NCBI GenBank assembly: GCA_036229005.1
Contig: JAZAMN010000022.1
Span: forward strand, 6,572 to 70,571
DNA from: Myxococcota bacterium
GTDB lineage: Bacteria; Myxococcota_A; UBA796; CAJQPC01
Direction: 5' to 3'
Length of the DNA: 64,000 nucleotides
The notes beneath the pieces are model-generated. The model saw only the letters and a program-made list of their open reading frames with translations, searched no databases and was not told the DNA's origin. This document shows, in pieces, positions 6,101-51,831 of the stretch; the stretch's first letter is position 1; every line of letters starts with the position of its first letter. Position numbers and translations under genes: made by a program.

Positions 6101-7617
6101 ATGAGGTCTCCTACCAGGAAGCCCTGAACCTGGCCGGGCGTCAGCGGATGCTCAACCAGCGCGCCATCAAGGAGGCGCTGGCCTGCAAGCTGGGACAGAC
6201 CCTGGACCCCCAGTCGACCCTGACGCTGCTGGAGCAGAGCGGGCGCGCGCTCCAGATGGGCGGTGAAGCCCAGGGCGCCTCGGGGAGCCTCCACCTCCCG
6301 AAGCCACCCACCGACGCGCTGTTCGGGGCGATGGAGCAGGCCAACCGCGCCTACACCGAGCTGCGCAAGCTGCTGGAGGGCTTCCTGGCCGACCAGGTCC
6401 CGCTGCCGGCGCTGCTCAGCCACGGCGATCAGGTGCACACCAAGGCCAACCGCGTGTGCACCCTCTACGCCAACGCCATCGACGAGCTGCTGGCCCGGCA
6501 GACCCGGGAGTCCCAGCGGATCCTGGAGGCCTGCCAACGCGGCGAGCTGGACTTCCGCGGCGAGACTCTGGGGCTGGCGCCGAGCGTGCGCGGGCCCATC
6601 GAGTCCACCAACGCCGTGCTCGATGCGGTGCTGGCCCCCATCCCCCAGGCGCTGGAGGTGCTGGCCAAGGTGGGCCAGGGCGACCTGCGCGAGCGCATCG
6701 ACACCAGCGAATACGTGGGCGACCACGCCCGCCTGGCCCAGGGCGTGAACCAGAGCGTGGAGACCCTGAACGACCTGCTCTGGGACCTGCGTCCGGTGAG
6801 CGAGGAGGTCGCGGACCAGGCCCACACCCTGCAGGCCACCGCTCTGCATCTGGCCACCAGCACCCAGCAGCAGGGCGGGTCCATCGAGGAGGTCGACAGC
6901 CTGCTCAAGCGCCTGGTCAGCGGCCTGGATGAGCACGCCCAGGTGGCCGACAAGGCCGCGGAGCTGGCGACCACCAGCGACGAGACCCTGCGGGGCTCCA
7001 GCGAACACCTGAGCGACTTCCTGGGCTCCATCCAGAGCCTGGAGGAGGGCGTCGAGCGCATCGCGAACTTCTTGACGGTCATCGACGACATCGCCTTCCA
7101 GACCGACCTGCTCGCTCTGAACGCGGCGGTGGAGGCGGCGCGGGCGGGGAACCACGGCAACGGGTTCGCGGTGGTCGCGCAGGAGGTCCGCGCGCTTGCG
7201 CTGCGCAGCTCCAAGGCCAGCTCACAGATGGAGGAGGTCGTGTCGTTGCTGGACCGGAACATGTCGCGGGCCGAGTCCCTGGCCAACACCACAGCGCGGG
7301 AGCTCCAGGAGGTCTCGGCGGCCTCGGCGCGGCTGGGGACGCACTCCCACACCCTGGCCCAGGCCAGCAAGCAACAGGTCGAGGAGATCCGACGCACCCA
7401 GGCGGCGATGTCGGAGCTGAGGACCACCAGTGAAGACGGCCAGCGCGCCGCCCGCCAGGTCGCCGGGGCCTCCAAGCAGCTCAGCGCCGGGGCCCAGCGC
7501 CTCCAGCAGCTCCAGGGCCGCTTCGAGCTCGCCCCGCAGACAGCGCAGCCGGTGCACGGCTTCGACCCCGAGCTGGTGGCCAAGGTCCGGGAGTGGCTGG
7601 AGCGGGGAGCCGCCTGA
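6097..7617 (+). CDS. soluble methyl-accepting chemotaxis protein with an N-terminal PilJ/NarX-type (nitrate-sensor-like) helical domain
   Basis: N-terminal [20 protein letters not shown] matches the P-box-like motif of PilJ/NarX/NarQ sensor domains. HAMP-like [12 protein letters not shown] signalling hairpin [41 protein letters not shown] see no TM helix. The ATG overlaps the upstream stop (ATGA at 6097-6100). Confidence 0.85.
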
Positions 7618-19335: not shown

Positions 19336-19680
19336 CTACAGGAGTCCGCCCCACTGCTGCTCGGTGTAGGCGCTGCAGGTGGCCTCGTCTGCGGAGAGAT
19401 CAGCGAGGCGTTCGCTGCACATGGATTCGGTGCGGTGGGCCGCAGAGGGGTCTCCGGCCGAGATCTCCTCCTCCTCCAACACCAGCAGCTCCCAGGTCCA
19501 GACCTCGCAGGAGGCCTGGAAGTCCTGGCCGTCGCTGTAGCCGGCGTCCTCCCAGCCCAGGCCCCAGTCCTCCAGGCAGGCGCCGTAGAGGCTCTGGGCC
19601 TCCGCGCACATCTGCAGGCAGGGCTCGGGGGCCTGGTCGGGGTGGGCCGCGCAGGCCAGCAGCGACAGCCAGATCGGCAT
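19336..19680 (-). CDS. small Cys-rich lipoprotein (114 aa)
   Basis: MPIWLSLLACAAHPDQ lipobox and 7 Cys. The ATG shares one nt with the upstream stop (TGATG at 19682-19678). Confidence 0.6.
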   Translation of the reverse strand: MPIWLSLLACAAHPDQAPEPCLQMCAEAQSLYGACLEDWGLGWEDAGYSDGQDFQASCEVWTWELLVLEEEEISAGDPSAAHRTESMCSERLADLSADEATCSAYTEQQWGGLL

Positions 19681-20834
19681 CAGTAGAAGGCCATGGAGCT
19701 GATGCCCAGGGTGGAGCTGATGTAGCCCCCCTCAGCGGTCAGGTCAGAGCAGCTGTTGATGTCCACGAGCATGGCGCCGCCGGCCACGCTGTTGGTCCAG
19801 TCGTAGCCCACGGAGATCCAGGCCTCGCCCTTGTTGTTGAGCCAGGGGCCGGAGCTGTAGGGCAGCTCGCCGCCGAGCTGGGTCATGGTCTCGGCGTCAG
19901 CGTCCAGGCAGTAGATCTCGGTGCCGTAGCTGGGGGTGTAGACGGTCATCAGGGCCTTGCCGGCGTCGTTCATGACCATGCCGCCGATGTCGCCGGAGAC
20001 GTCGGACTCGGTCACGATGGGCTCGGAGAGCAGGCCCTCGGAGAGGCTGAGGGTGCGCAGGTCGCCGTCGGGGCTGCCGTACATGCCGGTCTGGACGAAC
20101 ACCACGTCGCTGTCCTGGGGGTGGGCGCTGATGCGGGGGTTGACGCCCACCTCGTGGCTGCCGACGATGGCCTCGGTGGCGCAGTCGATCTCCAGGACCT
20201 GGCCGGGGCCGGCGCTGGCGAAGGTCTCCTGGTCCAGGATCTGGAGGGCAAGGATCAGGCGGTCGCCGTCCTTGATCATCGCGGCGGCTTCAGGCAGGCC
20301 GTCGGCGTCGGCGTAGGCGCTCAGGTCGATGGCGCCCGCGGGGTTGCCCTCGGCGGAGAAGATGGCGACCTTGTCCACGCCGTACTGGCTGACGAAGATC
20401 TTGTCGTCGCAGAAGTAGGCGGCCTGGGGGTTGGAGCCCTCGGCCAGGGAGATCTCCTGGGGGTTGGACCAGTCGCCGATGTCGTAGATGCGCAGGTAGT
20501 CGAAGCCGTAGCGGCCGAGCTGCAGGACCTTGCCCTGGTCCACGGTGACCCAGGCGTCAGAGGCGATGTCGGCCACGTCGGTGGCGTTGCGGCTGTCCAG
20601 CGCGAAGGTGGTCAGGGCGCCCACCGAGTAGTCGGTGGTGGTGGCGATGGCCATGGTGTGCTCGGGGTCGGCGTCCGCGTCGGAGTCGGAGTCGGCGTCC
20701 GAGTCGGCGTCGGCGTCGGCGTCGGCGTCGGTGTCGGCGTCAGCCTCTTCGGTGTCGCCGGTCTCCTCCAGATCGGCGGCGGGGGGGCAGCCCAGCAGGA
20801 CGGCGAGGGACAGGGACAGGGCGGTGAGGGTCAT
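19680..20834 (-). CDS. surface lipoprotein with an acidic D/A/S/T linker and a probable beta-propeller body, btuB-linked
   Basis: MTLTALSLSLAVLLGCPP lipobox, then ETGDTEEADADTDADADADADSDADSDSDADADPEH, then ~330 aa of beta-rich sequence. The ATG overlaps the btuB stop (ATGA 20831-20834). The track ORF 19680..21716 has a spurious N-terminal extension. Confidence 0.75.
   Translation of the reverse strand: MTLTALSLSLAVLLGCPPAADLEETGDTEEADADTDADADADADSDADSDSDADADPEHTMAIATTTDYSVGALTTFALDSRNATDVADIASDAWVTVDQGKVLQLGRYGFDYLRIYDIGDWSNPQEISLAEGSNPQAAYFCDDKIFVSQYGVDKVAIFSAEGNPAGAIDLSAYADADGLPEAAAMIKDGDRLILALQILDQETFASAGPGQVLEIDCATEAIVGSHEVGVNPRISAHPQDSDVVFVQTGMYGSPDGDLRTLSLSEGLLSEPIVTESDVSGDIGGMVMNDAGKALMTVYTPSYGTEIYCLDADAETMTQLGGELPYSSGPWLNNKGEAWISVGYDWTNSVAGGAMLVDINSCSDLTAEGGYISSTLGISSMAFY
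20667..20745 (-). repeat. imperfect hexanucleotide tract (GTCGGC/GTCGGA)n encoding the (DA/DS)n linker
   Basis: Plus-strand 20703-20726 is four perfect consecutive GTCGGC units, flanked by single-base variants. Confidence 0.85.
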
Positions 20835-22864
20835 GGGGTCTCCGGAGAGGGCGACCAGCGCAGGGTCAACAGGACCGTGCGGCCGGGCAGCGGATAGCCG
20901 ACAAAGTCGGTGAGTGGTTGAAGGATCAGGTTGTCGTCCTGGGGATCCAGGACGTTGCGGGCCACGGCCTCGACGCGCTGATCGCGCAGGTTGAGGACCG
21001 AGAGCTCCAGGGAGGGGAGCGCCGGCTTGGGCTGCACCCGCAGGAACACGCCGTGCAGGCTGCGGGGGGGCACCAGGTACCAGTTCGTGCGGTCCCAGTA
21101 GGACTGGGCGCTGTAGCTCCAGGTGTGCCCCAGGCGGACGCGCTCGCCCCAGTGCACCGAGCTGACCTGGGAGAGCTCCCAGAGGGGGATGCGGGGGAGC
21201 TGGTTGTCGGCCACGGCCGGGTCGGCGGTGAGGTTCACGCTCAGGGTGCGGGTCAGGTTGGACTGCAGCGAGACCCAGCCATGGAGCTCGGCGCTCAGGG
21301 CGGCCTCGACCCCCTGCACCCACGCGCGGCCGACGTTGTGGGCCACCAGGGTCTTCTGCGAGTTCTGGCTCCAGGTGATCAGGTTCTCGCTGTTCCGCCA
21401 GTAGTGCCCCAGCTCCAGGCTGCCCTGGATGCCCCAGCTCTGGGGGCTCTGCAGGCGCGCGCCCACGTCGGCCTGCCAGCCGGACTCGGGGGAGAGATCG
21501 GGGTTGCCCACGAGCACGCCGCGGTCCCCGTAGAGCTCTCCAAAGTCGGGGGGGCGCAGATAGCGGCCCGCGCTGGCCTTGAGGATCACCCCCTGGACCG
21601 GCAGGGCAGCCACCCCGATCCGGGGGGTGAACGCCGCCAGCGAGGACACACTGGCGCTGTCCACCCACAGCCCCTGCAGCACGGGGGAGACCCGCAGGCG
21701 CTCCTTGAGCAGCCACAGGTCAGCGGAGGCGGCGGCCCCGGTGGTCCAGCGCAGGTGCTGTTCGGCCTTGGCGCCGGGGTCCATCAGGTCCTGCGCGCTG
21801 GCCTGGTCCAAGCGGCCCCACGCGGTCCCCCGCAGGATCACGCTGGGGCTGGGCGCCCAGGCCACGCTCGCCAGAGTGCCGAGCTGCTGGGTGCTGGTGC
21901 GCTGCTCCCGGGCGCCGAGCACGATCTCCCCCAGGGGGTCATCCAGGGTCTCGACGCGGAGCTGGTGCCAGGCGCGGGCGGAGAGGCTGAGCTGCCCTGT
22001 CCCTGCCTGGGCCTGCAGCCCGACCAGGTTCCGGCGGCTGTCCAGGCGGGTCTGGTAGGAGCGGGCGCCGCTGTGGCCCGCCAGCCCCTCCTCCCGGAGC
22101 ATGGGGGCCCAGAGCAGGCTGAGCTCGGCGGGGCCGACGGGGCGCTCCAGGCGCAGCAGGCCGGAGATCTGGTCGCTGTCGTTGTTCTGGCGGACCTGGA
22201 GGCGGTCGTCCATCAGCGTGTAGCGGGTGCCGCCGTCGTCGAAGTAGGAGAAGTCCCCGTCGGAGTGGAAGGCCTCCCCCAGCACGAGCACGCGGGTCTG
22301 ACCGAGCTGCCCGGCGTGGGAGGCGCCGGCCTTGCGGTATCCAAAGCTGCCCACGCTGCCGTGGACCTGGGTGCCGCGGGCGTCTCCAGGGACCAGGTTG
22401 ACCACGCCGCCGATGGGGGCCGCGCCGAGCTGGGGAGGCGGGTTGCCGCGGTAGATCTCCACCCGCTCGAAGCTGTGCAGCGGCAGCTCGCTGAGGTTGA
22501 CCGCCGCGCTGCCGTCGGGGTTCAGCGGGATCCCGTCCAGGTGGATCTGCACCTGGCGGCTGCTGGAGCCCCGGATGCTGACGGTGGCGTAGTCCCCCAG
22601 GCCGCCCAGGCGGTTGACGGTGGTGCCCGAGGCGCTGTCCACGACCTGCGCGACGTCCCAGCTCGAGGGCAGGCGCTCGTCGACCTGGATGACGGTGACG
22701 GGGGCGGCGCTGCGCTGGGGATCGGCCTGCTCGCTGCGTTCACCGTGGACCTCGATGACGCCGCCGGCCTCCCCTCCCCCATCGGACGCAGCCCCATCGG
22801 ACGCACCGGTGTCTTCCTGGGCGAGCGCCAGGGAGAGCAGCAGGATGGGCGAGATGGGGGACAT
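20831..22864 (-). CDS. btuB: TonB-dependent outer-membrane receptor, BtuB-like
   Basis: Signal peptide MSPISPILLLSLALAQ. Plug-domain motifs VTVIQVDE, TVNRLGGLGDYATVSIRGSSSRQVQIHLDGIPLN and FERVEIYRG. ~600-aa barrel. Directly preceded by a cobalamin riboswitch. Confidence 0.85.
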   Translation of the reverse strand: MSPISPILLLSLALAQEDTGASDGAASDGGGEAGGVIEVHGERSEQADPQRSAAPVTVIQVDERLPSSWDVAQVVDSASGTTVNRLGGLGDYATVSIRGSSSRQVQIHLDGIPLNPDGSAAVNLSELPLHSFERVEIYRGNPPPQLGAAPIGGVVNLVPGDARGTQVHGSVGSFGYRKAGASHAGQLGQTRVLVLGEAFHSDGDFSYFDDGGTRYTLMDDRLQVRQNNDSDQISGLLRLERPVGPAELSLLWAPMLREEGLAGHSGARSYQTRLDSRRNLVGLQAQAGTGQLSLSARAWHQLRVETLDDPLGEIVLGAREQRTSTQQLGTLASVAWAPSPSVILRGTAWGRLDQASAQDLMDPGAKAEQHLRWTTGAAASADLWLLKERLRVSPVLQGLWVDSASVSSLAAFTPRIGVAALPVQGVILKASAGRYLRPPDFGELYGDRGVLVGNPDLSPESGWQADVGARLQSPQSWGIQGSLELGHYWRNSENLITWSQNSQKTLVAHNVGRAWVQGVEAALSAELHGWVSLQSNLTRTLSVNLTADPAVADNQLPRIPLWELSQVSSVHWGERVRLGHTWSYSAQSYWDRTNWYLVPPRSLHGVFLRVQPKPALPSLELSVLNLRDQRVEAVARNVLDPQDDNLILQPLTDFVGYPLPGRTVLLTLRWSPSPETP

Positions 22865-22954
22865 GTCCGGCCGGGGTCGGGGGGCACAGACAGAGGTCCA
22901 CCAAGGCGGTGGTTCCTGAGCCTGTCTGCATCCCCGCAGGCAAGTTCGTGGACG

Positions 22955-23160
22955 CACGCGCAGGCCGGTCTCCTGGCTCCTGGACCCTTGGGCTGGCCTT
23001 CCCGGAGCGCGCTCCAGTGGCAGTCAGCCAAGTCGCTCCCCGGGGGGAGCCGTCCAGTCACAGTGGCGGGGGCCGCGTCGGTTTCACACCGACTTCCCGT
23101 TTCACCCAGAGCGGACTCCGGGCACCTGCGCGTGGTTCAGACGTCAAAGAAGGTGGGCGT
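22955..23160 (-). promoter_or_regulatory. cobalamin (B12) riboswitch upstream of btuB
   Basis: The minus strand reads ...CAGGTGCCCGGAGTCCGCTCTGGGTGAAACGGGAAGTCGGTGTGAAACCGACGCGGCCCCCGCCACTGTGA...CAGGAGCCAGGAGACCGGCCTGC. This is the conserved GGGAAG..GGTG.GAA...GCGG.CCCGCCACTG core plus a B12 box (AGCCAGGAGACCGGCC). Confidence 0.88.
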
Positions 23161-23196: not shown

Positions 23197-24225
23197 CTAG
23201 GGATCCGCGGGGCCCAGGCACGCCAGCAGGCGGTCGCCCTGCGCGGGGGTCTGCGGGCTGATCCGGATGTGCTCAGGCAGACCAAAGGACACGCAACTCC
23301 GGACCACAACCCCTTGGGCCAGCAGGCGCTCAAAGCAGGCCTGGGCACCCGGGGTGCGCACGAGGAAATAGGGCGCGTGACCGCCCTGCACCGCCCAGCC
23401 CAGGTCCGCGATGGCGCCCATCAGGCGCTCCCGCTCCCGCCAGACGGCCGCGATCCCAGGGGCGTAGAGCTGGGGGTGGGAGACCGCGACGGTGGCGGCG
23501 GCCTGGGCCAGGGCGTTGACCCCCCAAGGCAGCAGGAGCGCGCGCACGGCGGCCAGAAAGCCCGGGTCCCCGACGGCGTATCCGACCCGCAGCCCGGCCA
23601 GCGCGTGGTCCTTGGTGAGCGAGCGGAGCACCAGCCGCCCAGGGCGCCAGGCGGGCGCCGGCGGGGGCTGCAGGAAGCCCATGTAGGCCTCGTCGATCAG
23701 CAGCGGGGCGATCCCCTGGAGCTGGGCCAGGATGTCCTCGCTGGTGAGCCGACCTGTGGGGTTGTTGGGGTTGCACACCACGATGAGCTGCGGTGAGCTG
23801 GCCCGCACCCGAGCGGGCAGATCCGCTCCCTCCTGGACCTGGACGGGCTCGGCCCCCGCCTGGAGCACGGCGGCCCGGTATTCGCCGAAGGTGGGCCCGA
23901 CGATGGCCACGCGGTCCCCGGGGCCCACGCAGGCCCGGACGGCGGCGTAGAGCAGCTCGATGGAGCCGTTGCCCACCAGGAGCTGGGCTTGAGGGAGTCC
24001 GGTGTGCGCGCTGAGGGCGGCGAGCAGGCCGGTGCAGTGGGGGTCGGGGTAGGCGCGCACGTCGCAGGCGGCGAGGGCCCGCAGCACGGGCTGCGGCGTC
24101 GGGATGGGCAGCAGGGTGGCCGAGAAGTCGATCAGGGCGTCGGGGTCCAGGCCGCGCGCGGCGAGCTGGCGCTTGCCTCCGTGGGGCACGGGCTGCAGGC
24201 GACGCACCCAGGGCTTGGGGATCAT
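23197..24225 (-). CDS. cobD: threonine-phosphate decarboxylase (class I/II aminotransferase fold)
   Basis: NPNNPTG and SLTKDHALAGLRVGY (PLP-Lys) motifs. 342 aa. The ATG overlaps the cbiZ stop (ATGA 24222-24225). Cob-operon context. Confidence 0.75.
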   Translation of the reverse strand: MIPKPWVRRLQPVPHGGKRQLAARGLDPDALIDFSATLLPIPTPQPVLRALAACDVRAYPDPHCTGLLAALSAHTGLPQAQLLVGNGSIELLYAAVRACVGPGDRVAIVGPTFGEYRAAVLQAGAEPVQVQEGADLPARVRASSPQLIVVCNPNNPTGRLTSEDILAQLQGIAPLLIDEAYMGFLQPPPAPAWRPGRLVLRSLTKDHALAGLRVGYAVGDPGFLAAVRALLLPWGVNALAQAAATVAVSHPQLYAPGIAAVWRERERLMGAIADLGWAVQGGHAPYFLVRTPGAQACFERLLAQGVVVRSCVSFGLPEHIRISPQTPAQGDRLLACLGPADP

Positions 24226-24881
24226 GGGGACTCCAGGCAGGCGCGCCCGCCAGCGCGCACGGCATCCAGCACGCAGCGGCCCACCGCGCTGCCGATGGCG
24301 GTGTGTTTTCCGGCGAACGCAAGGGGGGCGGCGCCGGTGAGGGGCGCGGCGACCACGACGCAGTCGGTCCCGGTGCCGGTGGCGCGGTCTCCGGAGCGGA
24401 CGCTGGCCACGCCCAGCTCGTGTACGGCCAAGGTGCGGGCCTCGACGGCCAGGCTCAAGACCTCCAGCAGCGCGGCGGCGCTCAGAGGCTGGCCCACCTG
24501 GACCAGGAGGTTGATGGTCCCGGCCACAGGCGCCAACCCCGGGGGATCCCCGATCCGGAGCCGGTTGCCCAGCCCCACGGTGGCCACGCACTCCGCGGCG
24601 GCGCGCTCCCCCTGGTGCTCCAGCTCGGCCCGGCAGTGGACCACCCGCGAGACGGAGGCCGAGGTCAGCAGCCCCACGGCCTCCGGTCGCCCACAGCCGC
24701 TCAGAGCCCCGCGCAGCAGCGCGCCCGCGTCCACATCCAGGCCCAGATCGCCGTCGCGCACCTGCCGCCAGACCACGGCCTGGGCCTCCCGCAGGCCGCC
24801 GCCCTCCAGCGCCCAGCTCAGGACCCGGTGGGGCGCGCCCAGGTCGACCGCCAAGATCGGCGGGCGCAGGCTCAGCTCCAC
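24222..24881 (-). CDS. cbiZ: adenosylcobinamide amidohydrolase
   Basis: CbiZ-like motifs GTINLLV, ATGTGTDCVVV and AGKHTAIGSAVG. The proposed GTG 24881 overlaps the cbiB 3' end by 10 nt, so the start is uncertain. Confidence 0.65.
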   Translation of the reverse strand: MELSLRPPILAVDLGAPHRVLSWALEGGGLREAQAVVWRQVRDGDLGLDVDAGALLRGALSGCGRPEAVGLLTSASVSRVVHCRAELEHQGERAAAECVATVGLGNRLRIGDPPGLAPVAGTINLLVQVGQPLSAAALLEVLSLAVEARTLAVHELGVASVRSGDRATGTGTDCVVVAAPLTGAAPLAFAGKHTAIGSAVGRCVLDAVRAGGRACLESP

Positions 24882-25789
24882 AGCGCCCCCAGGACGGCAG
24901 CCGTCAGGCCCCCATGGAGCAGCATCGCCCGCTGGGAGAGGGTGCAGGCCAGCCTCAGATCCGCCGCACCGCAGGCCCGCCCCGGGGCGCCCAGGGTGTA
25001 GTGCCCCGGCTTGTCCAGGCGCACCCCGAGCAGCCCGGCCATCGTCGCCATCGGCCACCCCGCGTTGGGGCTGGAGGTGACCCGGCGGTCGCGCCAGAGG
25101 GTCCGGAGCCCCCCACGCACCGAGGCCTGGGGCACGCTCAAGCCCACCAGCAAGAGCCACAGCGCGGTCAACCGCGCCGGGAGCAGGTTCAGCAGGTCGT
25201 CCAGGCGGGCGGCGGGCTTGCCCAGCCACTCGTAGCGGGGGGTGCGGTAGCCGATCATCGCGTCCAGGGTGTTCACGCAGCGGTAGGCCAGCAGCGCGGG
25301 CAGGCCGAGCTCCAGGGGGCTCCCCAGCACCAGCCAACACAGGGGCGCGACCAGGCTGTCCGAGGCGTTCTCCGCGATGCTCTCCGTCGCCGCCGCCGCG
25401 AGCTGGGGGGCCGTCAGCGCCTGCGGATCCCGACTGCACAGCCAGGACAGTCCGCCCCGAGCGGCCTCCAGGTCCCCCGCCTCCAGCGCGTCCGCCACCC
25501 GGTGCCCCGCCGACACCAGCCCCCACCACGAGAAGCCCGAGGTCAGCAGCCAGAGCGCCAGGACCGGTCCCGCCCAAGGCACCCGCTCCAAGAGCCCCAG
25601 CGCGGAGAAGGCCAGCGGGAGCCCCAGCGCCATCGCCGTGCCGTGGAGCAGCGCGCCGACCCGCCCCGCAGGCGCCCGCTCCCGGAGCCAGCCGACGGCG
25701 TTGCCCATCCACACCACCGGGTGGACCTTGAGGGGGGGCTCACCCACCCGATCCAAGGCCAGCGCCCCGAGCAGCAAGAGCCCGCTCAC
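24872..25789 (-). CDS. cbiB: adenosylcobinamide-phosphate synthase
   Basis: HPVVWMGN, ENASDSLVAPL and NAGWPMATMAGLLGVRL motifs, with multiple TM helices. The GTG overlaps the cobS stop (GTGA 25786-25789). Confidence 0.85.
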   Translation of the reverse strand: MSGLLLLGALALDRVGEPPLKVHPVVWMGNAVGWLRERAPAGRVGALLHGTAMALGLPLAFSALGLLERVPWAGPVLALWLLTSGFSWWGLVSAGHRVADALEAGDLEAARGGLSWLCSRDPQALTAPQLAAAATESIAENASDSLVAPLCWLVLGSPLELGLPALLAYRCVNTLDAMIGYRTPRYEWLGKPAARLDDLLNLLPARLTALWLLLVGLSVPQASVRGGLRTLWRDRRVTSSPNAGWPMATMAGLLGVRLDKPGHYTLGAPGRACGAADLRLACTLSQRAMLLHGGLTAAVLGALWS

Positions 25790-26529
25790 AGCAGGCCGAA
25801 CCCCGCCAGCACCAGCAGCTCCGTGCCCACGCAGGCGGCCCCCAACAGGTCCCCGGTGATCCCCCCCAGGCGCCGCCGGAACCACAGGCCCAGCAGGAGG
25901 GTGAGGATCCCGGCGCCCAGCAACAGCAGCCCACCCATGGGCCCCAACAGCGCGCCGCACAGCCCGACAACCACCCCAAAAGCGAGGACAGACCGTCCCC
26001 ACCCCAGCCCCGGCACCATGCGGTCGGCCAGGCCCTTGTTCTCCTGCCGGGCGTAGGGCAGCGCGGCCATGAGCAGCAGGGTGGACCAGCGGCCCAGGGC
26101 GTGGGCGAGCAGCAGCGCGGGCAGCCACTGGGCGGGCTCCAGGGCGCGCAGGGCCTCCAGGCGCAGGGCGAAGGCCACGACCACCGCGACCACCCCGTAG
26201 GCCCCCACCCGGCTGTCCCGGAAGATACGCAGGGCGCTCTCCCGATCCCGCCCGCCGCCCAGGCCATCGGCGGTGTCGGCCAGGCCGTCTTCGTGCAGCG
26301 CGCCCGTGAGCAGCGGACCGAGCGAAAGCACGCCCAGCGCCACGCTCAACCCCGGCGACAGGCCCAGGGTGTGCAGGCCCAGCGCAGCGCCGCCCAGGGC
26401 GGCCCCGATCCCCGCGCCCACCACCGGGAACCAGGGCGTGGCGCGGGCCAGGTCGTCCTCGCGGTAGTCGCGGGGCCACCCCAGGGGGATGCGCGTCAGG
26501 AAGGTGATGGCGGTGGCCAGGCCTCTCAT
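25786..26529 (-). CDS. cobS: adenosylcobinamide-GDP ribazoletransferase (cobalamin synthase)
   Basis: FLTRIP and LTGALHEDGLADTADG motifs. 247-aa polytopic membrane protein. Confidence 0.9.
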   Translation of the reverse strand: MRGLATAITFLTRIPLGWPRDYREDDLARATPWFPVVGAGIGAALGGAALGLHTLGLSPGLSVALGVLSLGPLLTGALHEDGLADTADGLGGGRDRESALRIFRDSRVGAYGVVAVVVAFALRLEALRALEPAQWLPALLLAHALGRWSTLLLMAALPYARQENKGLADRMVPGLGWGRSVLAFGVVVGLCGALLGPMGGLLLLGAGILTLLLGLWFRRRLGGITGDLLGAACVGTELLVLAGFGLL

Positions 26530-26536
26530 GCGGGGC

Positions 26537-27571
26537 TCACTCCGGGGGCGGTCCGGCGGCGGCCAGGACCTCCTGGAGGGTGGCCATCTCCGACATCACG
26601 GCGCAGGCGGAGCGCAGCATGGGCAGGCAGAGGGCGGCGCCGCTGGCCTCGCCGAGGCGCAAGCCCCAGTCCAGCAGGGCCTCGCCGGCGCCCAGAGCCT
26701 CCAAGATGGCCCGGTGGCCAGGCTCAGCGGAGGCGGTGGCCGGTCGAATGAAGCGGGCCAGGGATCCCCTCCCCTTCACCGCGCAGAGCGCCGCAGCGCC
26801 CACGATGAAGCCGTCCAACAACACGGGGATGCCCCGCTCGGCGGCTCCTTCGATGCAGCCGGCGATCGCGGCGAGCTCCAAGCCCCCCAGATCGGCCATC
26901 GCGGCCCAGGGGTCGCTGGGGCCATCGCGGTCCAGGGCGGCCTGCACGACGGCGACCTTGTGGGCGACACCCGCCGGGTCCAGGCCCGTCCCGGGGCCCA
27001 CCATCTCCTGCGCGGAGCGGCCCAGCAGGCGGGCGGAGAGCGCAGCGGCGGGGGTGGTGTTGCCGATGCCCATCTCGCCGAGGGCGAGCACCTGGATCCC
27101 GTCCCGGGCGGCCCGCTCGGCGGCGTCCACACCGGCCTGTCGCGCGGCCTGGAGCTGCTCGGGGGTCAGCGCGGGGCCCAGCATCAGGTCGGCGCTGCCC
27201 CGGGCCACCTTGGCGTTCACCACGGACACGCCGGGGGCGGGCGCAGGCAGCACGTCCAGGCCGGCCACGCCCACGTCCACGACCTCCAGCTCCGCGCCCG
27301 CCTGGCGCGCCAGAACGGACACCGCCGCCTTGCCCGCCGCGAAGGTGTGCACCATCGCCACGGTCACCGCCTGCGGGTAGGGACTCACGCCCTGCGCCAC
27401 CACGCCGTGATCGCCGGCGAACACGACCACGCGGGCCTTGTCGGCCTGGGGCATCGGGGTGTCCTGACACTCGGCCAGCCACAGGGCCAGCGCCTCCAGC
27501 CGCCCCAGGCTGCCGGGGGGCTTGGCCAGGGAATCCAGGTGGGCCTGCGCGGCCTCCACGCTCTCGCTCAT
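26537..27571 (-). CDS. cobT: nicotinate-nucleotide--dimethylbenzimidazole phosphoribosyltransferase
   Basis: LAKPPGSLGRLE, FAGDHGV, GEMGIGNTT and LDGFI motifs. Confidence 0.9.
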   Translation of the reverse strand: MSESVEAAQAHLDSLAKPPGSLGRLEALALWLAECQDTPMPQADKARVVVFAGDHGVVAQGVSPYPQAVTVAMVHTFAAGKAAVSVLARQAGAELEVVDVGVAGLDVLPAPAPGVSVVNAKVARGSADLMLGPALTPEQLQAARQAGVDAAERAARDGIQVLALGEMGIGNTTPAAALSARLLGRSAQEMVGPGTGLDPAGVAHKVAVVQAALDRDGPSDPWAAMADLGGLELAAIAGCIEGAAERGIPVLLDGFIVGAAALCAVKGRGSLARFIRPATASAEPGHRAILEALGAGEALLDWGLRLGEASGAALCLPMLRSACAVMSEMATLQEVLAAAGPPPE

Positions 27572-28077
27572 CGCGTCTCCTTCAGGGTGAGGACCTGCCC
27601 CAGAGCCACCAGCTCCACGCGGTCACAGAGTTCAGCCAGGCGCTGGCCCAGGAAGCCGGCCTCATCGCGGAAGCGGCGCGCCAGGGGGTTCAGGGGGACG
27701 ATGCCCAGCCCGACCTCGTTGGTGACCAGGATGACGGGGTTGGGCGCAGCCTGCAGCGCATCGGCCAGAGCGGTGAAGTCGGCATCCAGCGGGCCCTCCT
27801 TCCGCTCGTGCAGCAGGTTCGAGACCCAGAGCGTCAGGCAGTCCAGGAGCACGACCTTGCCGGGCTGGTGCAGGTGGGGGGCCACGTCGATGGGGGCCTC
27901 GATGGTGGTCCAGCCGGCGCCGCGGTCCGCCTGGTGTCGGGCGATGCGGTCGGTCATCTCGGCGTCGAAGGCCTGTCCGGTCGCCAGGTAGACGCGCTCG
28001 GGGGCCAAAGACTCGGCCAGGGCCTGGGCGCGGCGGCTCTTCCCGCTGCGGGCGCCGCCGGTGATGAGGGCCTTCAT
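27568..28077 (-). CDS. cobU: bifunctional adenosylcobinamide kinase / adenosylcobinamide-phosphate guanylyltransferase
   Basis: P-loop ITGGARSGKS, plus LLDCLTLW and VTNEVGLGIVP motifs. The ATG overlaps the upstream stop (ATGA 28074-28077). Confidence 0.9.
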   Translation of the reverse strand: MKALITGGARSGKSRRAQALAESLAPERVYLATGQAFDAEMTDRIARHQADRGAGWTTIEAPIDVAPHLHQPGKVVLLDCLTLWVSNLLHERKEGPLDADFTALADALQAAPNPVILVTNEVGLGIVPLNPLARRFRDEAGFLGQRLAELCDRVELVALGQVLTLKETR

Positions 28078-28742
28078 GGGGTGCCTCCAAGGGGCAGGGC
28101 GTGGGCCGTCTGCAGGGGACTCAGGGGCACGCGCGCGTCCCACTCCACCCGCTCGATGCGGTCGAAGGACAGGGGAATGGGGGGCAGCGCGCGCAGCGCG
28201 GAGAGCGCCTGGACGATGGGCCCGGTGGGGGTGGCCGGGTGGAAGAGCCCCACGGTGACGTGCGGCGCGTAGGGCGAGAAGCGCAGGTCCCGAGAGCCCT
28301 GGGAGAGGCGGGCTCTGAGGCCCTCCAGAGCGCCTTCGGCGTCGTCCACCTCCAGGACCGCGCAGCCCTCGAAGCAGCTCGCCGATCCCACCCGCAAGCG
28401 AGGACAGGCTGCCCCGCTCAGGGCCTGGGCCTGCGCCGCGAGCTGGCCGGCGTCCACGCTGTCCTCCACCCACCCGGGGGGCAAGGGCTCGGCGCTGGGG
28501 CCGTCCACGAAGCCGGCTACCCACACGGTGATGTGCAGGTCGCTGCTGGGTAGCGGGCGCAGCCACGGAGACAGCGCCTGGGCCACCTGCCGGACGCGCC
28601 GAACCGCCTCGGATGCGCCCACCCGCAGCACCCACGCGGAATAGCGCGCGCGCCCCCGCAGCCAGGCCTGTCGGCCACCCGGCGGGGGATCTGCGGTGTG
28701 GGGCAGCGCGCAGAAGCGCGCCCAGGCGGCCGGCCAGTCCAT
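28074..28742 (-). CDS. 2H phosphoesterase superfamily (LigT/CPDase-like) protein embedded in the cobalamin operon
   Basis: Two H-h-T-h motifs about 95 aa apart (SDLHITVWVAG and APHVTVGLF). 222 aa. Start and stop both overlap neighbouring cob genes (TGATG at 28744-28740; ATGA at 28074-28077), which supports this being the translated frame. Confidence 0.65.
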   Translation of the reverse strand: MDWPAAWARFCALPHTADPPPGGRQAWLRGRARYSAWVLRVGASEAVRRVRQVAQALSPWLRPLPSSDLHITVWVAGFVDGPSAEPLPPGWVEDSVDAGQLAAQAQALSGAACPRLRVGSASCFEGCAVLEVDDAEGALEGLRARLSQGSRDLRFSPYAPHVTVGLFHPATPTGPIVQALSALRALPPIPLSFDRIERVEWDARVPLSPLQTAHALPLGGTP

Positions 28743-29344
28743 CAGAACTCGACGCCCTTGCGCGCCCGGATGCCGGCGTCGAAGGCGTGCTTGACCAGGG
28801 TGTGCTCGGTGACGGTGTCGGCGGCGTCGATCACGGCCTGGGGCGCGTTGCGGCCGGTGACCACGATGGAGACGTGCTCGGGCTTGTTGCGGAGCACCTG
28901 GGCGACCTCGTCGGCGTCCAGGTAGTCGTAGCGCAGGGCGATGTTCAGCTCGTCCAGCACCACCACGTCGTGGGCGCCGCCCTGGATGAACTCCTTGGCC
29001 ATCGCCCAGCCCCGCTCAGCCGCGGCGATGTCCTTGGCGCGGTCCTGGGTGTTCCAGGTGAAGCCCTCGCCGGAGACCACGTGGGTGATCTCGGGGAAGC
29101 GCTTGAGGGCGGCCTGCTCGCCGGTCTTCCAGGTGCCCTTGATGAACTGGACGACGGCCACCTGCTGGCCGTGCCCGGCGGCGCGGATTGCCACCCCAAA
29201 GCCAGCGGTGGACTTGCCCTTTCCGTCACCGGTGTGGACGATCACCACGCCGCGCTTGATGTCCTTGGAGCGCGCCTTGGCGTCCTGCTCGGCCTTGAGG
29301 GCGGCCATGGCGGCCTTGTGCTCTTGTTCGGTGGGCTGGCTCAT
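28742..29344 (-). CDS. cobO: cob(I)yrinic acid a,c-diamide adenosyltransferase (CobA/CobO/BtuR type)
   Basis: HTGDGKGKSTAGFG P-loop, plus VVQFIKG and LDELN motifs. Confidence 0.9.
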   Translation of the reverse strand: MSQPTEQEHKAAMAALKAEQDAKARSKDIKRGVVIVHTGDGKGKSTAGFGVAIRAAGHGQQVAVVQFIKGTWKTGEQAALKRFPEITHVVSGEGFTWNTQDRAKDIAAAERGWAMAKEFIQGGAHDVVVLDELNIALRYDYLDADEVAQVLRNKPEHVSIVVTGRNAPQAVIDAADTVTEHTLVKHAFDAGIRARKGVEF

Positions 29345-30291
29345 TGGGGGCTCCGGGGGTGGACACGGGGTTGCAGCTCCTGGGCGGTCTTGAGCACGCC
29401 CAGGCCGGGGTCATTGGGGTAGCTGGGGGGCAGCTCGACGATCCGCCCGCCTTCGTGGCAGGCGCGGAGCTGCTCCAGGATGGAGTGCCGGCAGATGGTC
29501 GGGGTGCTGCCGCTGGGGGCCAGGATCAGGGGGGGATCCAGGGCCAGCAGGTCCTCGGCGCTGTAGCGGGGCCACATCTGGTGGCCGGCGTCCGCCGCCA
29601 CGTCGTGGATGCCGCTCAGGCGCAGCATGTCGCCGTAGCTGGTGCCTTGGGTGCCGCCGTACCAGGCGTCCCCAATGACGCTCAAGTAGATGCCGTCGAT
29701 GCGCTGGTCGGGCGGAACGGCCAGCTCCAGGGCGCGCTCCTGCAGGTCCAGGCTGCGCAGCAGGGCGTCTCCGCGGGCCGGGGCGCCGACGAGCTGGGAG
29801 AGCAGGCGGATGTCCTCGCGGGTGGACTCCAGACCGTACATGCCGCCCAGGTCGAAGGTGGGGATGCCCTCCTCCTCCAAGCGGGCGAGCAGCGCAGCGT
29901 CCACAAAGTTGGAGACGATCACCAGGTCGGGCTGGGCGCGGAGGATGGCCTCCAGGCGGTTGTTCTGTCCGATGGGGATCTGGGCGGAGAAGCGCCAGCC
30001 CTCGGAGTTGCCGGCGACGTTGGCCTCGGTGATGGCCACGAGCCGGCTGGGCTCCACCAGCTCCAGCAGCAGGTGGTCGGCGACCATGTGCAGGGAGACG
30101 ATGCGCTGGTAGTCGGCCACGGGGACGGCGATCCCGCGGCCATCCACGACCTCGGTGAGCGCGGCGGTGCTCTGGGCGGTGGACACGGAACCGGTGACCT
30201 CGGCGGCGGGCGGCGCAGCCCACATGGCCCCGGCCACCGAGCCCGCCAGAGCGGTGAGGAGCAGAGCCCCGTTGAGCAGCTCAGCCTTCAC
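29341..30291 (-). CDS. btuF: ABC-transporter periplasmic binding protein, BtuF/FecB class
   Basis: Signal sequence, then RIVSL...VAIT...PDLVIVSNF and PPLILAP patterns typical of cluster-8 binding proteins. Coupled by ATGA overlaps on both sides. Confidence 0.7.
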   Translation of the reverse strand: MKAELLNGALLLTALAGSVAGAMWAAPPAAEVTGSVSTAQSTAALTEVVDGRGIAVPVADYQRIVSLHMVADHLLLELVEPSRLVAITEANVAGNSEGWRFSAQIPIGQNNRLEAILRAQPDLVIVSNFVDAALLARLEEEGIPTFDLGGMYGLESTREDIRLLSQLVGAPARGDALLRSLDLQERALELAVPPDQRIDGIYLSVIGDAWYGGTQGTSYGDMLRLSGIHDVAADAGHQMWPRYSAEDLLALDPPLILAPSGSTPTICRHSILEQLRACHEGGRIVELPPSYPNDPGLGVLKTAQELQPRVHPRSPQ

Positions 30292-31028
30292 TCCCCCTCC
30301 CCGGGCAGCGACCAGGACGGGGCCTGGCCGGGGTGCATCTGGACGCCGTAGACCTGCAGGATGGGCTCGGGGGCGACGATCCCGGAGACCGGTCCGAAGG
30401 CGTGGACGCGGCCCTCGTGCAGGAGCACGGCGTCGTCGGCGTGGCGCTGGGCCTCGGCGAGATCGTGGAGGACGGAGACCACCAGGTGGCCCTGGTCGGC
30501 GAGCTCCCGCAGCACGCGGTGGATGGCGAGGGCGTGGCCCAGGTCCAGGGCGGAGGTGGCTTCGTCCAACAGCAGGGTGGTGGCGCCGACGGCCAGGGCG
30601 CGGGCCAGCAAGACGCGCTGCCGCTCGCCGCCGGAGAGCTGGGTGAAGGGGCGCTCCGCCAGGGCGGTGATCGAGACGCGCTCCATGGCCTGGTCCACCT
30701 GCTTGCGGCCGCCGCCGCCGTGGACGAAGCGGCCCAGGGCGACCACCTCGCGCACGGAGAGGGGGGCGTTGAGCAGGCTGCGCTGGGGCACGTAGGCGAC
30801 GCGGCGGGCGCGCTCGGGGGGCGACAGGGCGCCCAGCTCCTGGCCGTCCAGGGTGATGCGGCCCTGGCTGGGGAGCAGGCCCAGGATGGCCTTGAGCAGG
30901 GTGCTCTTGCCGACGCCGTTGGGGCCCAGCAGGGCGGTGATCCGGCCGCGCTCCAGGCGCAGGTCCACGCCGTCAAAGACCTGGTGGTCGCGGTGTCCGG
31001 CGCGCAGGCCGTGGAGCTCCAGGCTCAT
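30288..31028 (-). CDS. btuD: ABC transporter ATP-binding protein, BtuD/FecE class
   Basis: Walker A GPNGVGKST, signature LSGGERQR and Walker B LLLDEATSALD. Only the C-terminal 246 codons of track ORF 30288..32183 are real. Confidence 0.9.
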   Translation of the reverse strand: MSLELHGLRAGHRDHQVFDGVDLRLERGRITALLGPNGVGKSTLLKAILGLLPSQGRITLDGQELGALSPPERARRVAYVPQRSLLNAPLSVREVVALGRFVHGGGGRKQVDQAMERVSITALAERPFTQLSGGERQRVLLARALAVGATTLLLDEATSALDLGHALAIHRVLRELADQGHLVVSVLHDLAEAQRHADDAVLLHEGRVHAFGPVSGIVAPEPILQVYGVQMHPGQAPSWSLPGEGE

Positions 31029-32026
31029 CCCAGCCTCCCCTGGCGGGCGGCGCGGGCCAGCAGGAAGAGGAACACGGGGGCGCCGACCAGGCCGGTGACG
31101 ACGCCCAGGGGGAGCGCGCCGGTGGTGGGGGCCAGGCGGACGATGAGGTCGGCCCAGAGGACGAACGCGGCGCCCCCGACGGCGGCGGCGGGGAGCAGGC
31201 GGCGGTGGCCGGCGCCCAGGAAGGGACGGAGGCCGTGGGGGACGACCAACCCGACGAAGCTGAGGCCGCCCCCGATGGCGACGGCGGCGGCGGTGAGGGT
31301 GGCGGTCCAGACGATGACCCAGCGGCGCACGCGGGGGACGTTGACGCCCAGAGAGGCGGCCTCGTCTTCGCCGGCCAGCAGCACGTCCAGGTGGCGGGAC
31401 CAGCCCATGCCCGCGGCGAGTCCGGCGGCGACCAGGGGGAAGGCCAGCGCGACGTGCCGAGCGCCCTTGGTGTCGATGCCGCCCAGGGTGAAGGCGACCA
31501 CGGCGCGGCCCAGCTCCCAGTTGTCCTGGGCGATGCTCATCATCAGGCCGCCCACGCTCAGGAAGAGGCTGCTGAGGATGAAGCCGGTGAGCAGGGTGGC
31601 CACCATGCCGGGGTTGCGCCCGCTGACCAGCAGCAGGAGCATCAGCGCGCCCCAAGCGCCCAGCAGGCACCCCAGGGGCAGCAGCAGCTCGGGGGGCAGG
31701 AAGCCCGGCAGCACGGCGGCCAGCAGGCCCTCCCACGCGACCATCACCAGCATGCCACCCAGGCTCGCGCCGGCGGTCGTGCCCAGGATCGAGGGGCTGG
31801 CCAAGGGGTTCCGGAACAGGCCCTGCACCAGCACGCCGCCCACAGCCAGGGCCGCCCCCGCCAGGCAGGCGTTGAGCACGCGCCAGAGCCGCAGGCGGAA
31901 CAGGGTCTGCTCCAGCGCGCCCTGCTCCTGGCCGGAGCCCAGCCACAGCGCCAGGCCCACCCCGCCAAAGAACAGGAGCAGGAGCACGGTCCAGACGCCC
32001 AGGACGCCGCGGGGAGGAGCGCTCAA
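31025..32026 (-). CDS. btuC: FecCD-family ABC permease, BtuC-like
   Basis: 333 aa, ~9-10 TM helices, with NPLASPSILG and GxxxFVGLVVPH motifs. Confidence 0.88.
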   Translation of the reverse strand: MSAPPRGVLGVWTVLLLLFFGGVGLALWLGSGQEQGALEQTLFRLRLWRVLNACLAGAALAVGGVLVQGLFRNPLASPSILGTTAGASLGGMLVMVAWEGLLAAVLPGFLPPELLLPLGCLLGAWGALMLLLLVSGRNPGMVATLLTGFILSSLFLSVGGLMMSIAQDNWELGRAVVAFTLGGIDTKGARHVALAFPLVAAGLAAGMGWSRHLDVLLAGEDEAASLGVNVPRVRRWVIVWTATLTAAAVAIGGGLSFVGLVVPHGLRPFLGAGHRRLLPAAAVGGAAFVLWADLIVRLAPTTGALPLGVVTGLVGAPVFLFLLARAARQGRLG

Positions 32027-32089
32027 GGGTGCAGGGGGAGTGGGGGGCCAAGGGGCCCAGAGAGTCGCCGCATCCTTCCCTCCGAAGGA

Positions 32090-32300
32090 CTGGGGTGATC
32101 GCAGAGGCCGGTCTCCTCGCTCCCGCTGATGAGTCTCGGGGACTCCTCGCGCCGCGCCTTCCCAGGGGAGTCCCCAGTGGCATGTGCGGTGCGATTCAGC
32201 GGTCAGAGTGGCGGGGGCCGCGCCGGTTCGCGGAGGCCCCCAGGGGGGCGCGCGTCCGGACTTCCCGTTTCATCCCCGAAGGGACACCTCTGCTGGGTCA
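32090..32300 (-). promoter_or_regulatory. cobalamin (B12) riboswitch upstream of the btuC-...-cobD operon
   Basis: The minus strand reads CAGAGGTGTCCCTTCGGGGATGAAACGGGAAGTCCGG...AACCGGCGCGGCCCCCGCCACTCTGACC...GGGAGCGAGGAGACCGGCCTCTGC, with a B12 box (AGCGAGGAGACCGGCC). Confidence 0.88.
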
Positions 32301-32349
32301 ATGAACTGGCGCCTGTCCTAGCGTGCGCTCCCCCCCCTCGCAAGCGCGC

Positions 32350-51474: not shown

Positions 51475-51559
51475 GGAGGTGTGGCCGAGCGGTTGAAGGC
51501 ACCGGTCTTGAAAACCGGCAACCCTTCGGGGTTCGTGGGTTCGAATCCCACCGCCTCCG
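51475..51559 (+). tRNA. tRNA-Ser (anticodon UGA)
   Basis: GGAGGTG acceptor pairs with CGCCTCC. Anticodon arm CCGGT-CTTGAAA-ACCGG. Long variable arm. T-arm GTGGG-TTCGAAT-CCCAC. 85 nt, with no encoded CCA. Confidence 0.9.
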
Positions 51560-51615
51560 CTTCCCCCGTCTCGGGGACCAAGATCTTTTAAAGCGCTGAC
51601 TGCAGATGCCTGTTT

Positions 51616-51708
51616 GGAGGCGTGACCGAGTGGCTGAAGGTGCTTGATTGCTAATCAAGTGTACGGTCAAAAGCTGTACCGAGGGTTCGAATCCCTCCGC
51701 CTCCGCCA
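51616..51708 (+). tRNA. tRNA-Ser (anticodon GCU), CCA encoded
   Basis: GGAGGCG acceptor. Anticodon arm CTTGA-TTGCTAA-TCAAG. Long variable arm. T-arm GAGGG-TTCGAAT-CCCTC, then CGCCTCC-G-CCA. Confidence 0.9.
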
Positions 51709-51757
51709 CCTTGGCTCCAACCGGTTATACCGGCTTCCGCATCGCAGAAGGCCATAC

Positions 51758-51831
51758 GCACCCATAGCTCAATTGGATAGAGCGTCGGACTACGGATCCG
51801 AAGGTTAGGGGTTCGACTCCTCTTGGGTGTA
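51758..51831 (+). tRNA. tRNA-Arg (anticodon ACG)
   Basis: GCACCCA acceptor. D-arm GCTC-AATTGGATA-GAGC. Anticodon arm TCGGA-CTACGGA-TCCGA. T-arm AGGGG-TTCGACT-CCTCT. The 3' acceptor strand TGGGTGT gives a G1-U72 wobble. Confidence 0.85.

Follow-up and report, generated by a model that had tools for sequence, protein, structure and literature searches.

A predicted B12-uptake locus in a Myxococcota genome pairs a BtuB-like outer-membrane transporter with a lipoprotein that is a remote homologue of BtuG, the B12-capture "lid" of Bacteroides. This lipoprotein belongs to a large family without a Pfam model that is linked to cobalamin riboswitches and BtuB-like genes in many phyla in which BtuG was thought to be absent. 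B12 is made by a minority of microbes and limits many others, so how cells capture it shapes communities in the gut, the ocean and soil. BtuB-BtuG is the only known lid-assisted B12 uptake system and has been described as exclusive to Bacteroidetes (PMC6143338), and conserved transporter-lid pairs have been described as almost confined to that phylum (bioRxiv 10.1101/2023.03.17.533168). In the literature we searched, no paper reports BtuG-like proteins outside Bacteroidota.

We examined a 64,000-nucleotide stretch (the window) of a Myxococcota bacterium (GCA_036229005.1, contig JAZAMN010000022.1), for which an earlier note, made from sequence alone, had described two lipoproteins co-translated with a riboswitch-controlled btuB. 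The sequence-level observation in that note is confirmed in full. A Cobalamin riboswitch (Rfam RF00174, 22946-23144, minus strand, 106.3 bits, E 1.3e-25, full model 1-189) precedes a BtuB-like TonB-dependent transporter gene (20831-22867, minus strand; 678 aa from the ATG at 22867, with a GTG at 22891 as an alternative start). BtuB is defined by a plug plus a 22-strand barrel, and the transporter has Plug (8e-15) and TonB_dep_Rec_b-barrel (4.5e-27) domains in Pfam. Its best PDB sequence hits are E. coli BtuB (5e-21), but it scores only 98.8 bits against NCBIfam TonB-B12, far below the equivalog cut-off of 599.7, and its B12 specificity is inferred. The transporter stop and the ATG of the next gene form ATGA at 20834-20831. 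This second gene (19680-20834, minus strand) encodes a 384-aa lipoprotein beginning MTLTALSLSLAVLLGC, with a signal peptide (20787-20834) that ends in an LLGC lipobox at residues 13-16, Cys16 being the predicted lipidated residue. A 42-residue acidic tether rich in D/E/S/T/A, PPAADLEETGDTEEADADTDADADADADSDADSDSDADADPE (20661-20786), links the anchor to the body; it is predicted to be disordered (pLDDT below 55) and is the only such stretch in the window apart from one unrelated Cys-rich repeat. The TGA of this gene shares one base (19680) with the ATG of a third gene (TGATG), which encodes a 114-aa lipoprotein (19336-19680, minus strand) with an LLAC lipobox and 7 Cys in all. The signal peptides of both lipoproteins are short and lack a basic N-region. 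No promoter-like or terminator-like site was found inside the three-gene block, although such a scan is weak evidence in 71% GC DNA. The note had also placed the DNA in a Myxococcota-like organism, which is right: the 384-aa protein is 100% identical to VX899_09790 of a Myxococcota MAG.

The interpretation in the note was partly supported: the propeller fold and the linkage to btuB and the riboswitch hold, as does the BtuG-like role as an inference. It had proposed a YncE-type beta-propeller with a BtuG-like role, and had named a structural comparison with BtuG and conserved linkage to btuB as checks. The AlphaFold2 model has a mean pLDDT of 86 and shows an all-beta, seven-bladed propeller body (19683-20660, residues 59-384) with about 27 strands at pLDDT 86-98, mostly above 90. 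In a Foldseek search of the PDB the 12 best hits are all BtuG1, BtuG2 or BtuG3 (E 8e-12 to 6e-11, TM-score 0.68-0.78 normalised by BtuG chain length, rmsd 3.5-4.3 A), ahead of the generic YVTN propeller 1L0Q at rank 13 and of cd1-type propellers. The proposal that the protein is an analogue, "probably non-homologous" to BtuG, is not supported. Profile-profile comparison (hhalign) with a BtuG profile limited to the N-terminal 214 residues gives 96.5% probability (E 8e-10 over 210 columns), with Cys16 aligned to the lipid Cys21 of BtuG3. The signal does not come from the signal peptide, given that after removal of signal peptide and tether the probability is still 95.9% (E 5e-9 over 113 columns), against 0.1% for reversed and shuffled controls. 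A protein search with a 95-aa BtuG3 fragment returned only fragments of 167 aa or fewer, so that residue-level comparison does not extend to blades 5-7. Identity to BtuG is 11-15%. BtuG fragments carry Pfam DUF5074 (PF16819), but the window protein has no Pfam hit at E<=1 and none of 29 family members hits PF16819 at E<=10. By sequence, the family profile is about as close to 1L0Q (1.4e-4, the best PDB profile hit) as to BtuG3 (3.5e-4), with BtuG2 at 6e-3; hence the specific link to BtuG rests on fold ranking and gene context. NCBIfam gave only low-complexity matches of the tether to SdrD/Clf adhesins.

We also mapped the BtuG2 ligand contacts (E55, F58, Q93, N107, S131, W149, W194, Q219 and W272; bioRxiv 10.1101/2024.02.16.580637) onto the family through the alignment of blades 1-4, using 175 representatives. 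F58 aligns with Y/F69 (97% aromatic), N107 with a position that is N in 70% of the family but G in the window protein, S131 with N135 (96%) and Q219 with N232 (84%), and Q93 lies next to D93 (98%); Y151 and Q198 are also at aligned positions. These positions are among the most conserved of the family, but the contact residues of BtuG are mostly replaced rather than kept. A loop between two blades, IDLSAYADADGLPEA (20286-20330, minus strand, residues 169-183), is a signature of the family, with D176 97%, D178 98%, G179 95% and E182 97% conserved. It is not conserved in BtuG, which has IECPDMTMETGSTEQ at the aligned place.

The family comprises 1,259 clusters at E<=1e-30. We located 38 genome loci by a peptide motif alone, using a 9-sequence subset because the full alignment lacked a conserved block. 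A Cobalamin riboswitch lies upstream on the same strand in 27 of 34 evaluable loci. A BtuB-like gene lies upstream on the same strand in 27 loci and is adjacent in another orientation or distant in 4 more, giving 31 of 38 (33 of 40 with two further loci, L039 and L040). In three Desulfobacterota loci (L026, L034 and L037) the riboswitch sits directly in front of the propeller gene. Elsewhere the downstream neighbours look, from our reading of their N-terminal sequences alone, like PduO-type or CobA adenosyltransferases, BtuF-like or CobD-like genes. The genomes span Myxococcota, Desulfobacterota, Gammaproteobacteria, Leptospiraceae, Gemmatimonadota and Latescibacterota, and the cultured gammaproteobacterial carriers Spongiibacter thalassae KMU-166 and S. 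pelagi KMU-158 make the idea directly testable. Most members have a lipobox, but the tether is long only in the closest clade, and other members have shorter, often acidic linkers. Four members of the 29-sequence alignment have no lipobox but a FlgD_ig plus Por_Secre_tail (type IX secretion) C-terminus, which argues for a surface location, whereas some Desulfobacterota members have only a Sec signal without Cys, which by default means periplasmic. No fusion to known B12-binding domains was found among ten long family members scanned, and a tblastn search against plasmids gave no match.

We consider it more likely than not that the three genes form one B12-repressed operon for corrinoid scavenging at the outer membrane. 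In this view, when B12 is scarce the riboswitch would allow expression of the BtuB-like transporter, and the two lipoproteins would be made with it through the overlapping stop and start codons. We propose that the propeller binds corrinoids in the central cavity on one face, using the conserved polar and aromatic residues of blades 1-4, and sits on or next to the extracellular side of BtuB as a tethered lid that hands the ligand to the transporter. The acidic tether would let it swing away from the membrane, and TonB-driven uptake would be followed by the BtuF and BtuC (and presumably BtuD) system encoded 6-9 kb upstream. The analysis itself establishes the gene arrangement, the riboswitch, the predicted fold, the remote homology to BtuG and the conserved linkage to the riboswitch and btuB in many phyla, whereas co-transcription and riboswitch control of the two downstream genes, corrinoid binding, contact with BtuB and surface exposure are inferred without any binding or localisation experiment. 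Lipoproteins outside Bacteroidota usually face the periplasm, and the Bacteroidota export signal that follows the Cys in BtuG (MKWD in BtuG2; PMC6143338) is absent here, where Cys16 is followed by PPAADLEE.

These points leave a periplasmic relay as the strongest alternative, although we regard it as unlikely. The propeller would then be anchored to the inner leaflet of the outer membrane, or be soluble in the periplasm in the Sec-only members, and would bind corrinoid as it leaves BtuB and pass it to BtuF; a long tether could span the periplasm. It would still be a B12-binding partner, but not a surface lid. However, members with type IX secretion tails must be exported, the homologue BtuG sits on the extracellular face (PMC10404256), and a separate BtuF-like binding protein is already encoded in the window, which also led us to reject the idea that the propeller replaces BtuF. 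A Ca2+-dependent hydrolase or lactonase-like enzyme of the Drp35/SMP30/paraoxonase type, acting on corrinoids or on another substrate of the transporter, is very unlikely. Conserved acidic or amide residues are spread over the blades (D68, D93, D112, N135, D176/D178/E182, D217, N232, D256 and E276), the signature loop contains a DxDG-like motif, and there are weak profile hits to the lactonase Drp35 (3e-3) and one SGL hit in a family member, but the best fold matches are seven-bladed BtuG rather than six-bladed lactonases, BtuG also binds B12 mainly through many polar contacts to corrin amides, and the gene pairs with the transporter rather than with enzymes. Least likely is an accessory without ligand binding (a structural or protective cap for BtuB, for example for stability or shielding from phages and bacteriocins, or a passenger unrelated to B12): direct evidence for binding is lacking and the BtuG contact residues are not conserved as such, but a riboswitch sits directly in front of the propeller gene alone in L026, L034 and L037, the linkage holds across at least six phylum-level groups, and the positions that align with the BtuG pocket are among the most conserved.

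A broader reading, which we hold only tentatively, is that extracellular, propeller-mediated B12 capture is not a Bacteroidota speciality and that a very large sister family of BtuG serves BtuB transporters in marine, sediment and soil bacteria of the groups listed above. Members would reach the cell surface in three different ways, by a lipid anchor with an acidic tether, by type IX secretion or by Sec-only export, with the small lipoprotein as a third component in one Myxococcota clade. If true, this implies an unrecognised surface-lipoprotein export route in these phyla and a widespread mechanism of corrinoid competition in the environment. A remote BtuG family of at least about 1,250 sequence clusters, tied to B12 riboswitches and btuB in at least six other phylum-level groups, would extend the lid mechanism widely, give a name and a testable function to a large Pfam-less family, and raise the question of how non-Bacteroidota expose such lipoproteins.

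Of known systems, BtuG1/2/3 of Bacteroides thetaiotaomicron (PDB 3DSM, 8BMX, 8OKV and 8PTD) is the closest, being likewise a seven-bladed propeller lipoprotein encoded next to btuB under a B12 riboswitch, with a co-linear lipid Cys and blades 1-4. BtuG is further marked by very high-affinity (picomolar or tighter) corrinoid binding, surface exposure and a stable BtuB complex, whereas for the Myxococcota protein corrinoid binding, surface exposure and contact with BtuB are inferred. Besides the sequence divergence, pocket residues, signature loop and export signal described above, the Myxococcota protein has the 42-residue acidic tether instead of a short linker, its gene order is btuB then propeller with overlapping genes that suggest translational coupling, and the new family occurs in other hosts with lipobox, Sec-only or type IX anchoring. 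YVTN/YncE-type propellers (the archaeal S-layer propeller 1L0Q and E. coli YncE) belong to the same repeat superfamily but have no link to B12 genes, whereas the window family has its own conserved motifs and a conserved riboswitch and btuB context. XusB, a Bacteroides xenosiderophore-binding propeller lipoprotein (DUF4374; PDB 9HQE/9HQK), also serves a TonB-dependent transporter but is structurally less similar than BtuG (Foldseek E about 1e-8, TM 0.60) and has a siderophore ligand and an iron regulon. In Proteobacteria, the Slam-dependent surface lipoproteins TbpB and HpuA are tethered and capture the ligand for a TonB-dependent transporter encoded in the same operon, with unrelated folds and ligands.

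The suggestion in the note that the 114-aa protein has a BtuH-like role is not supported, and the protein is not BtuH-like. BtuH binds B12 through a DUF4465 domain, which is a beta-jellyroll in the solved BtuJ1 structure (PMC13398666); like the 114-aa protein, BtuH and BtuJ are extra lipoproteins encoded in riboswitch-controlled B12 uptake loci, and DUF4465 itself is reported in Myxococcota and other phyla (PMC13398666). The 114-aa protein has no Pfam or NCBIfam match, and its AlphaFold2 model, built with 3 sequences (pLDDT 82.6), is an all-helical, four-helix domain (helices 19-38, 51-74, 83-95 and 102-106), with three disulfides inferred, and no PDB fold match (E>6). All 7 Cys (the lipobox Cys and 6 more), W43, W63, E64, Y105 and W110 are invariant in 7 homologues. 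The protein occurs only in the closest relatives and follows the propeller gene only in loci L001, L002, L039 and L040. It would be a clade-specific accessory of the proposed complex. The wider context is also one of corrinoid import and salvage: a second Cobalamin riboswitch (32089-32306, 79.7 bits) heads a minus-strand stretch (23197-32306) with btuC, a BtuF-like binding protein, CobA/BtuR, CobT, CobS, CbiB, CbiZ and a CobD-type aminotransferase (Pfam FecCD, Peripla_BP_2, CobA_CobO_BtuR, DBI_PRT, CobS, CobD_Cbib, CbiZ and Aminotran_1_2).

The minus strand of the window carries a Cobalamin riboswitch aptamer at 22946-23144 (RF00174, 106 bits, E 1.3e-25), and a TonB-dependent transporter begins about 80 nt downstream, with an ATG at 22867 and a stop at 20831-20833. 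The transporter has Plug and barrel domains and its best solved sequence relatives are E. coli BtuB (5e-21), but it scores far below the BtuB equivalog cut-off of NCBI, and 'BtuB-like' is therefore a call from context. Its TGA is embedded in ATGA with the start of a 384-aa ORF (20834-19680), and the TGA of that ORF shares its A with the ATG of a 114-aa ORF (19680-19336). The 384-aa protein starts MTLTALSLSLAVLLGC and continues with a 42-residue linker that is almost entirely D, E, A, S and T, whereas the 114-aa protein starts MPIWLSLLAC and has six more cysteines. No upstream in-frame start exists for either gene, and although both signal peptides are short and lack a basic N-region, the lipobox is conserved in homologues. 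No promoter-like or terminator-like site was found inside the block, and a convergent Cys/Met-metabolism gene ends 68 nt beyond the operon. The arrangement described in the earlier note, two lipoprotein genes following a riboswitch-headed btuB, each with its start overlapping the stop of the gene before it, is confirmed and accurately described.

The 384-aa protein has no Pfam or NCBIfam family. A word-indexed search found 30 relatives, including a 100% identical protein from a Myxococcota MAG, and an exhaustive profile search of 1.84 billion cluster representatives found 4,489 proteins at E<=1e-3 and 1,259 at E<=1e-30, which makes this a large, unnamed family. One representative (protein P0031, 739 aa) contains two tandem copies of the propeller, and several others (600-860 aa) have long extensions with no Pfam match. 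An AlphaFold2 model based on a 29-sequence alignment gave a mean pLDDT of 86, with the body mostly above 90 and about 27 strands. Foldseek against the PDB placed BtuG2, BtuG1 and BtuG3 chains in ranks 1-12 (E 8e-12 to 6e-11, target-normalised TM 0.68-0.78, rmsd 3.5-4.3 A, 11-15% identity), with the PDB codes tied to BtuG through PMC10404256, whereas the generic YVTN propeller 1L0Q, cd1-type propellers and XusB rank lower.

On the sequence level, the family profile reaches 1L0Q (1.4e-4), BtuG3 (3.5e-4) and BtuG2 (about 6e-3). We rebuilt BtuG3 residues 1-214 from fragments and aligned 19 BtuG N-terminal sequences, and hhalign of this alignment against the family gave 96.5% probability over 210 columns, with the lipid cysteines aligned. 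After removal of the signal peptide and tether it still gave 95.9% (E 5e-9, 113 columns), while reversed and shuffled template columns gave 0.1%. However, no member of the family hits Pfam DUF5074, which the BtuG fragments carry, even at E<=10. The protein is therefore a remote homologue of BtuG within the YVTN/YncE propeller superfamily, and neither a DUF5074 member nor an unrelated analogue.

BtuG binds B12 in the central cavity through many hydrogen bonds from blades 1-4 to the corrin amides, plus aromatic packing (PMC10404256). A preprint lists the BtuG2 contacts as Glu55, Gly56, Phe58, Gln93, Asn107, Ser131, an Arg, Ile148, Trp149, Trp194, Ser195, Gln219 and Trp272, and over this range BtuG2 numbering equals BtuG3 numbering plus 11, without gaps. 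We mapped these contacts through the hhalign alignment onto conservation in 175 family representatives. Phe58 aligns with Y/F69 (97% aromatic), Gln93 lies next to D93 (98%), Asn107 aligns with position 107 (N in 70%, but G in the window protein), Ser131 with N135 (96%) and the adjacent Arg with Q/H137 (Q in 54%, H in 31%). Further along, Ile148 aligns with Y151 (Y in 73%), Trp194-Ser195 with Q198-R199 (Q in 71%, R in 72%, although the window protein has I at 199) and Gln219 with N232 (84%). The most conserved residues of the new family thus sit where BtuG touches its ligand, but they are mostly different residues. This fits a retained pocket with altered chemistry but is not proof, given that the blade-1 part of the alignment is the least certain, that the comparison leaves out blades 5-7, and that it rests on aligned sequence rather than on model coordinates. 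The strongest motif of the family, IDLSAYADADGLPEA (20286-20330), has no counterpart in BtuG.

To examine gene context elsewhere, we scanned one genome per species using only the peptide pattern [IVL]DLSAYADA, which returned 38 loci, none of them from Bacteroidota. The hosts are Myxococcota and "Deltaproteobacteria"; Thermodesulfobacteriota, Desulfatiglandales and Desulfobacteraceae; Gammaproteobacteria, including the cultured Spongiibacter thalassae and S. pelagi; Leptospiraceae (Turneriella); Gemmatimonadaceae; and Latescibacterota. Rfam found a Cobalamin riboswitch upstream on the same strand in 27 of these loci, and as four of the other 11 have less than about 1.2 kb of upstream sequence, this corresponds to 27 of 34 evaluable loci. 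Riboswitches of this class number a few per genome, so chance would give well under 1%. Two further loci from close relatives (L039 and L040) also have the riboswitch. In two of the loci, L013 (1275-1406, minus strand) and L014 (2597-2732, minus strand), a short Cobalamin riboswitch match covering only model positions 45-169 lies on the opposite strand, upstream of the full riboswitch-btuB-propeller unit.

Across the 40 loci including L039 and L040, tblastn found a BtuB-like gene upstream on the same strand in 29. It lies immediately downstream in one locus, convergent with its own riboswitch in three, and as an upstream fragment about 2.2 kb away in one, which makes 34 of 40 loci with a BtuB-like gene (the figures for the 38 genome loci alone are 27 and 31). 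In the three convergent Desulfobacterota loci, from Desulfatiglandales and deltaproteobacterial MAGs (L026 6528-8374, L034 6287-8128 and L037 901-2732), the riboswitch lies directly in front of a propeller gene that has a Sec signal only and no lipobox, and a tRNA-Sec gene lies just upstream in L026 and L034. In another Myxococcota MAG (locus L003, 8047-8236), which has a BtuB-like gene but no riboswitch hit, the gene after the propeller starts a lipoprotein with a DTSDTSDNTDNTDDTD tether like the one in the window before the contig ends. Judged from their N-terminal sequences alone, genes downstream of the propeller in other lineages look like PduO-type adenosyltransferases, CobA/BtuR, BtuF-like binding proteins and CobD-like enzymes.

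In the window itself, a second Cobalamin riboswitch (32089-32306) heads a minus-strand cluster (23197-32306) of btuC and a BtuF-like binding protein for import, followed by CobA/BtuR, CobT, CobS, CbiB, CbiZ and a CobD-type aminotransferase for salvage and remodelling. The window thus holds a corrinoid import and remodelling cluster with its own periplasmic binding protein, and no ring-synthesis genes are in view among the genes scanned, which leave out the 30291-31025 gap, presumably btuD. A 2H/LigT-like phosphoesterase (2_5_RNA_ligase2, 2e-10; 28074-28742, minus strand) sits between CobA and CobT inside this cluster, a family that is not known to occur in B12 gene clusters.

Three anchoring modes occur in the family: a lipobox in most members, including Spongiibacter and Turneriella; a plain Sec signal in several Desulfobacterota; and a Sec signal plus a C-terminal FlgD_ig/Por_Secre_tail (type IX secretion) domain in Latescibacterota, Gemmatimonadaceae and metagenomic members. 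The last group, of about 460-480 aa and without a lipobox, includes L005 6851-8230, L011 about 5769-7148 and proteins P0018, P0020, P0021 and P0024. The type IX forms must act outside the outer membrane, the separate BtuF-like protein argues against a BtuF-like role, and translational coupling to BtuB, as read from the overlapping codons, fits a stoichiometric complex. These points favour a surface lid as in Bacteroides. However, the Sec-only forms, and the general rule for lipoproteins outside Bacteroidota, keep a periplasmic relay alive as the main rival. The long acidic tether is special to the closest clade, whereas other members have shorter, often acidic linkers after the Cys, which is reminiscent of, but not the same as, the Bacteroidota export signal, a comparison that is an inference only.

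For the 114-aa protein, only three database sequences exist (itself, one at 77% and one at 44% identity), and four more copies lie directly after the propeller gene, with overlapping start, in L001, L002, L039 and L040. All seven Cys and several Trp and Tyr residues are invariant. AlphaFold2 predicts a four-helix domain with a pLDDT of 82.6, although from only three sequences, and Foldseek finds nothing in the PDB (best E 6). The protein is not BtuH-like. Three disulfides imply a periplasmic or extracellular location, where it may serve as a complex accessory, a second binder or an assembly factor.

Wexler et al. 2018 describe BtuG as found exclusively in Bacteroidetes, on the basis of BlastP over 313 gut genomes, and Price's survey of transporter lids finds conserved pairs almost only in Bacteroidota. 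Among the papers mentioning BtuG in the literature searched, none that we could identify reports relatives in other phyla. The wider idea is not without precedent, given that DUF4465 (BtuH/BtuJ) has recently been noted in Myxococcota and other phyla. Compared with BtuG, we see the same predicted fold, the same operon logic and probably the same job, but in a separate sequence family, with different anchoring, in different phyla and with a new third component. The interpretation in the earlier note, of a BtuG/BtuH-like but probably non-homologous pair, is thus only partly supported: it is right about role and context, but wrong about non-homology and wrong about a BtuH-like second protein. While the gene arrangement is established by the sequence, corrinoid binding and surface exposure are well-motivated inferences, which we hold with moderate confidence overall. 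The breadth of the family outside Bacteroidota would surprise a specialist, and the existence of cultured carriers makes the proposal testable.

Elsewhere in the window, the only other strongly acidic stretch belongs to a 1,356-aa protein (39459-43529, plus strand) that contains Cys/Asp-rich repeats (...CDDQDPDVHPDADELCDGIDNDCD...), and three tRNA genes (Rfam RF00005, 60-66 bits) lie in a row at 51475-51831 on the plus strand.
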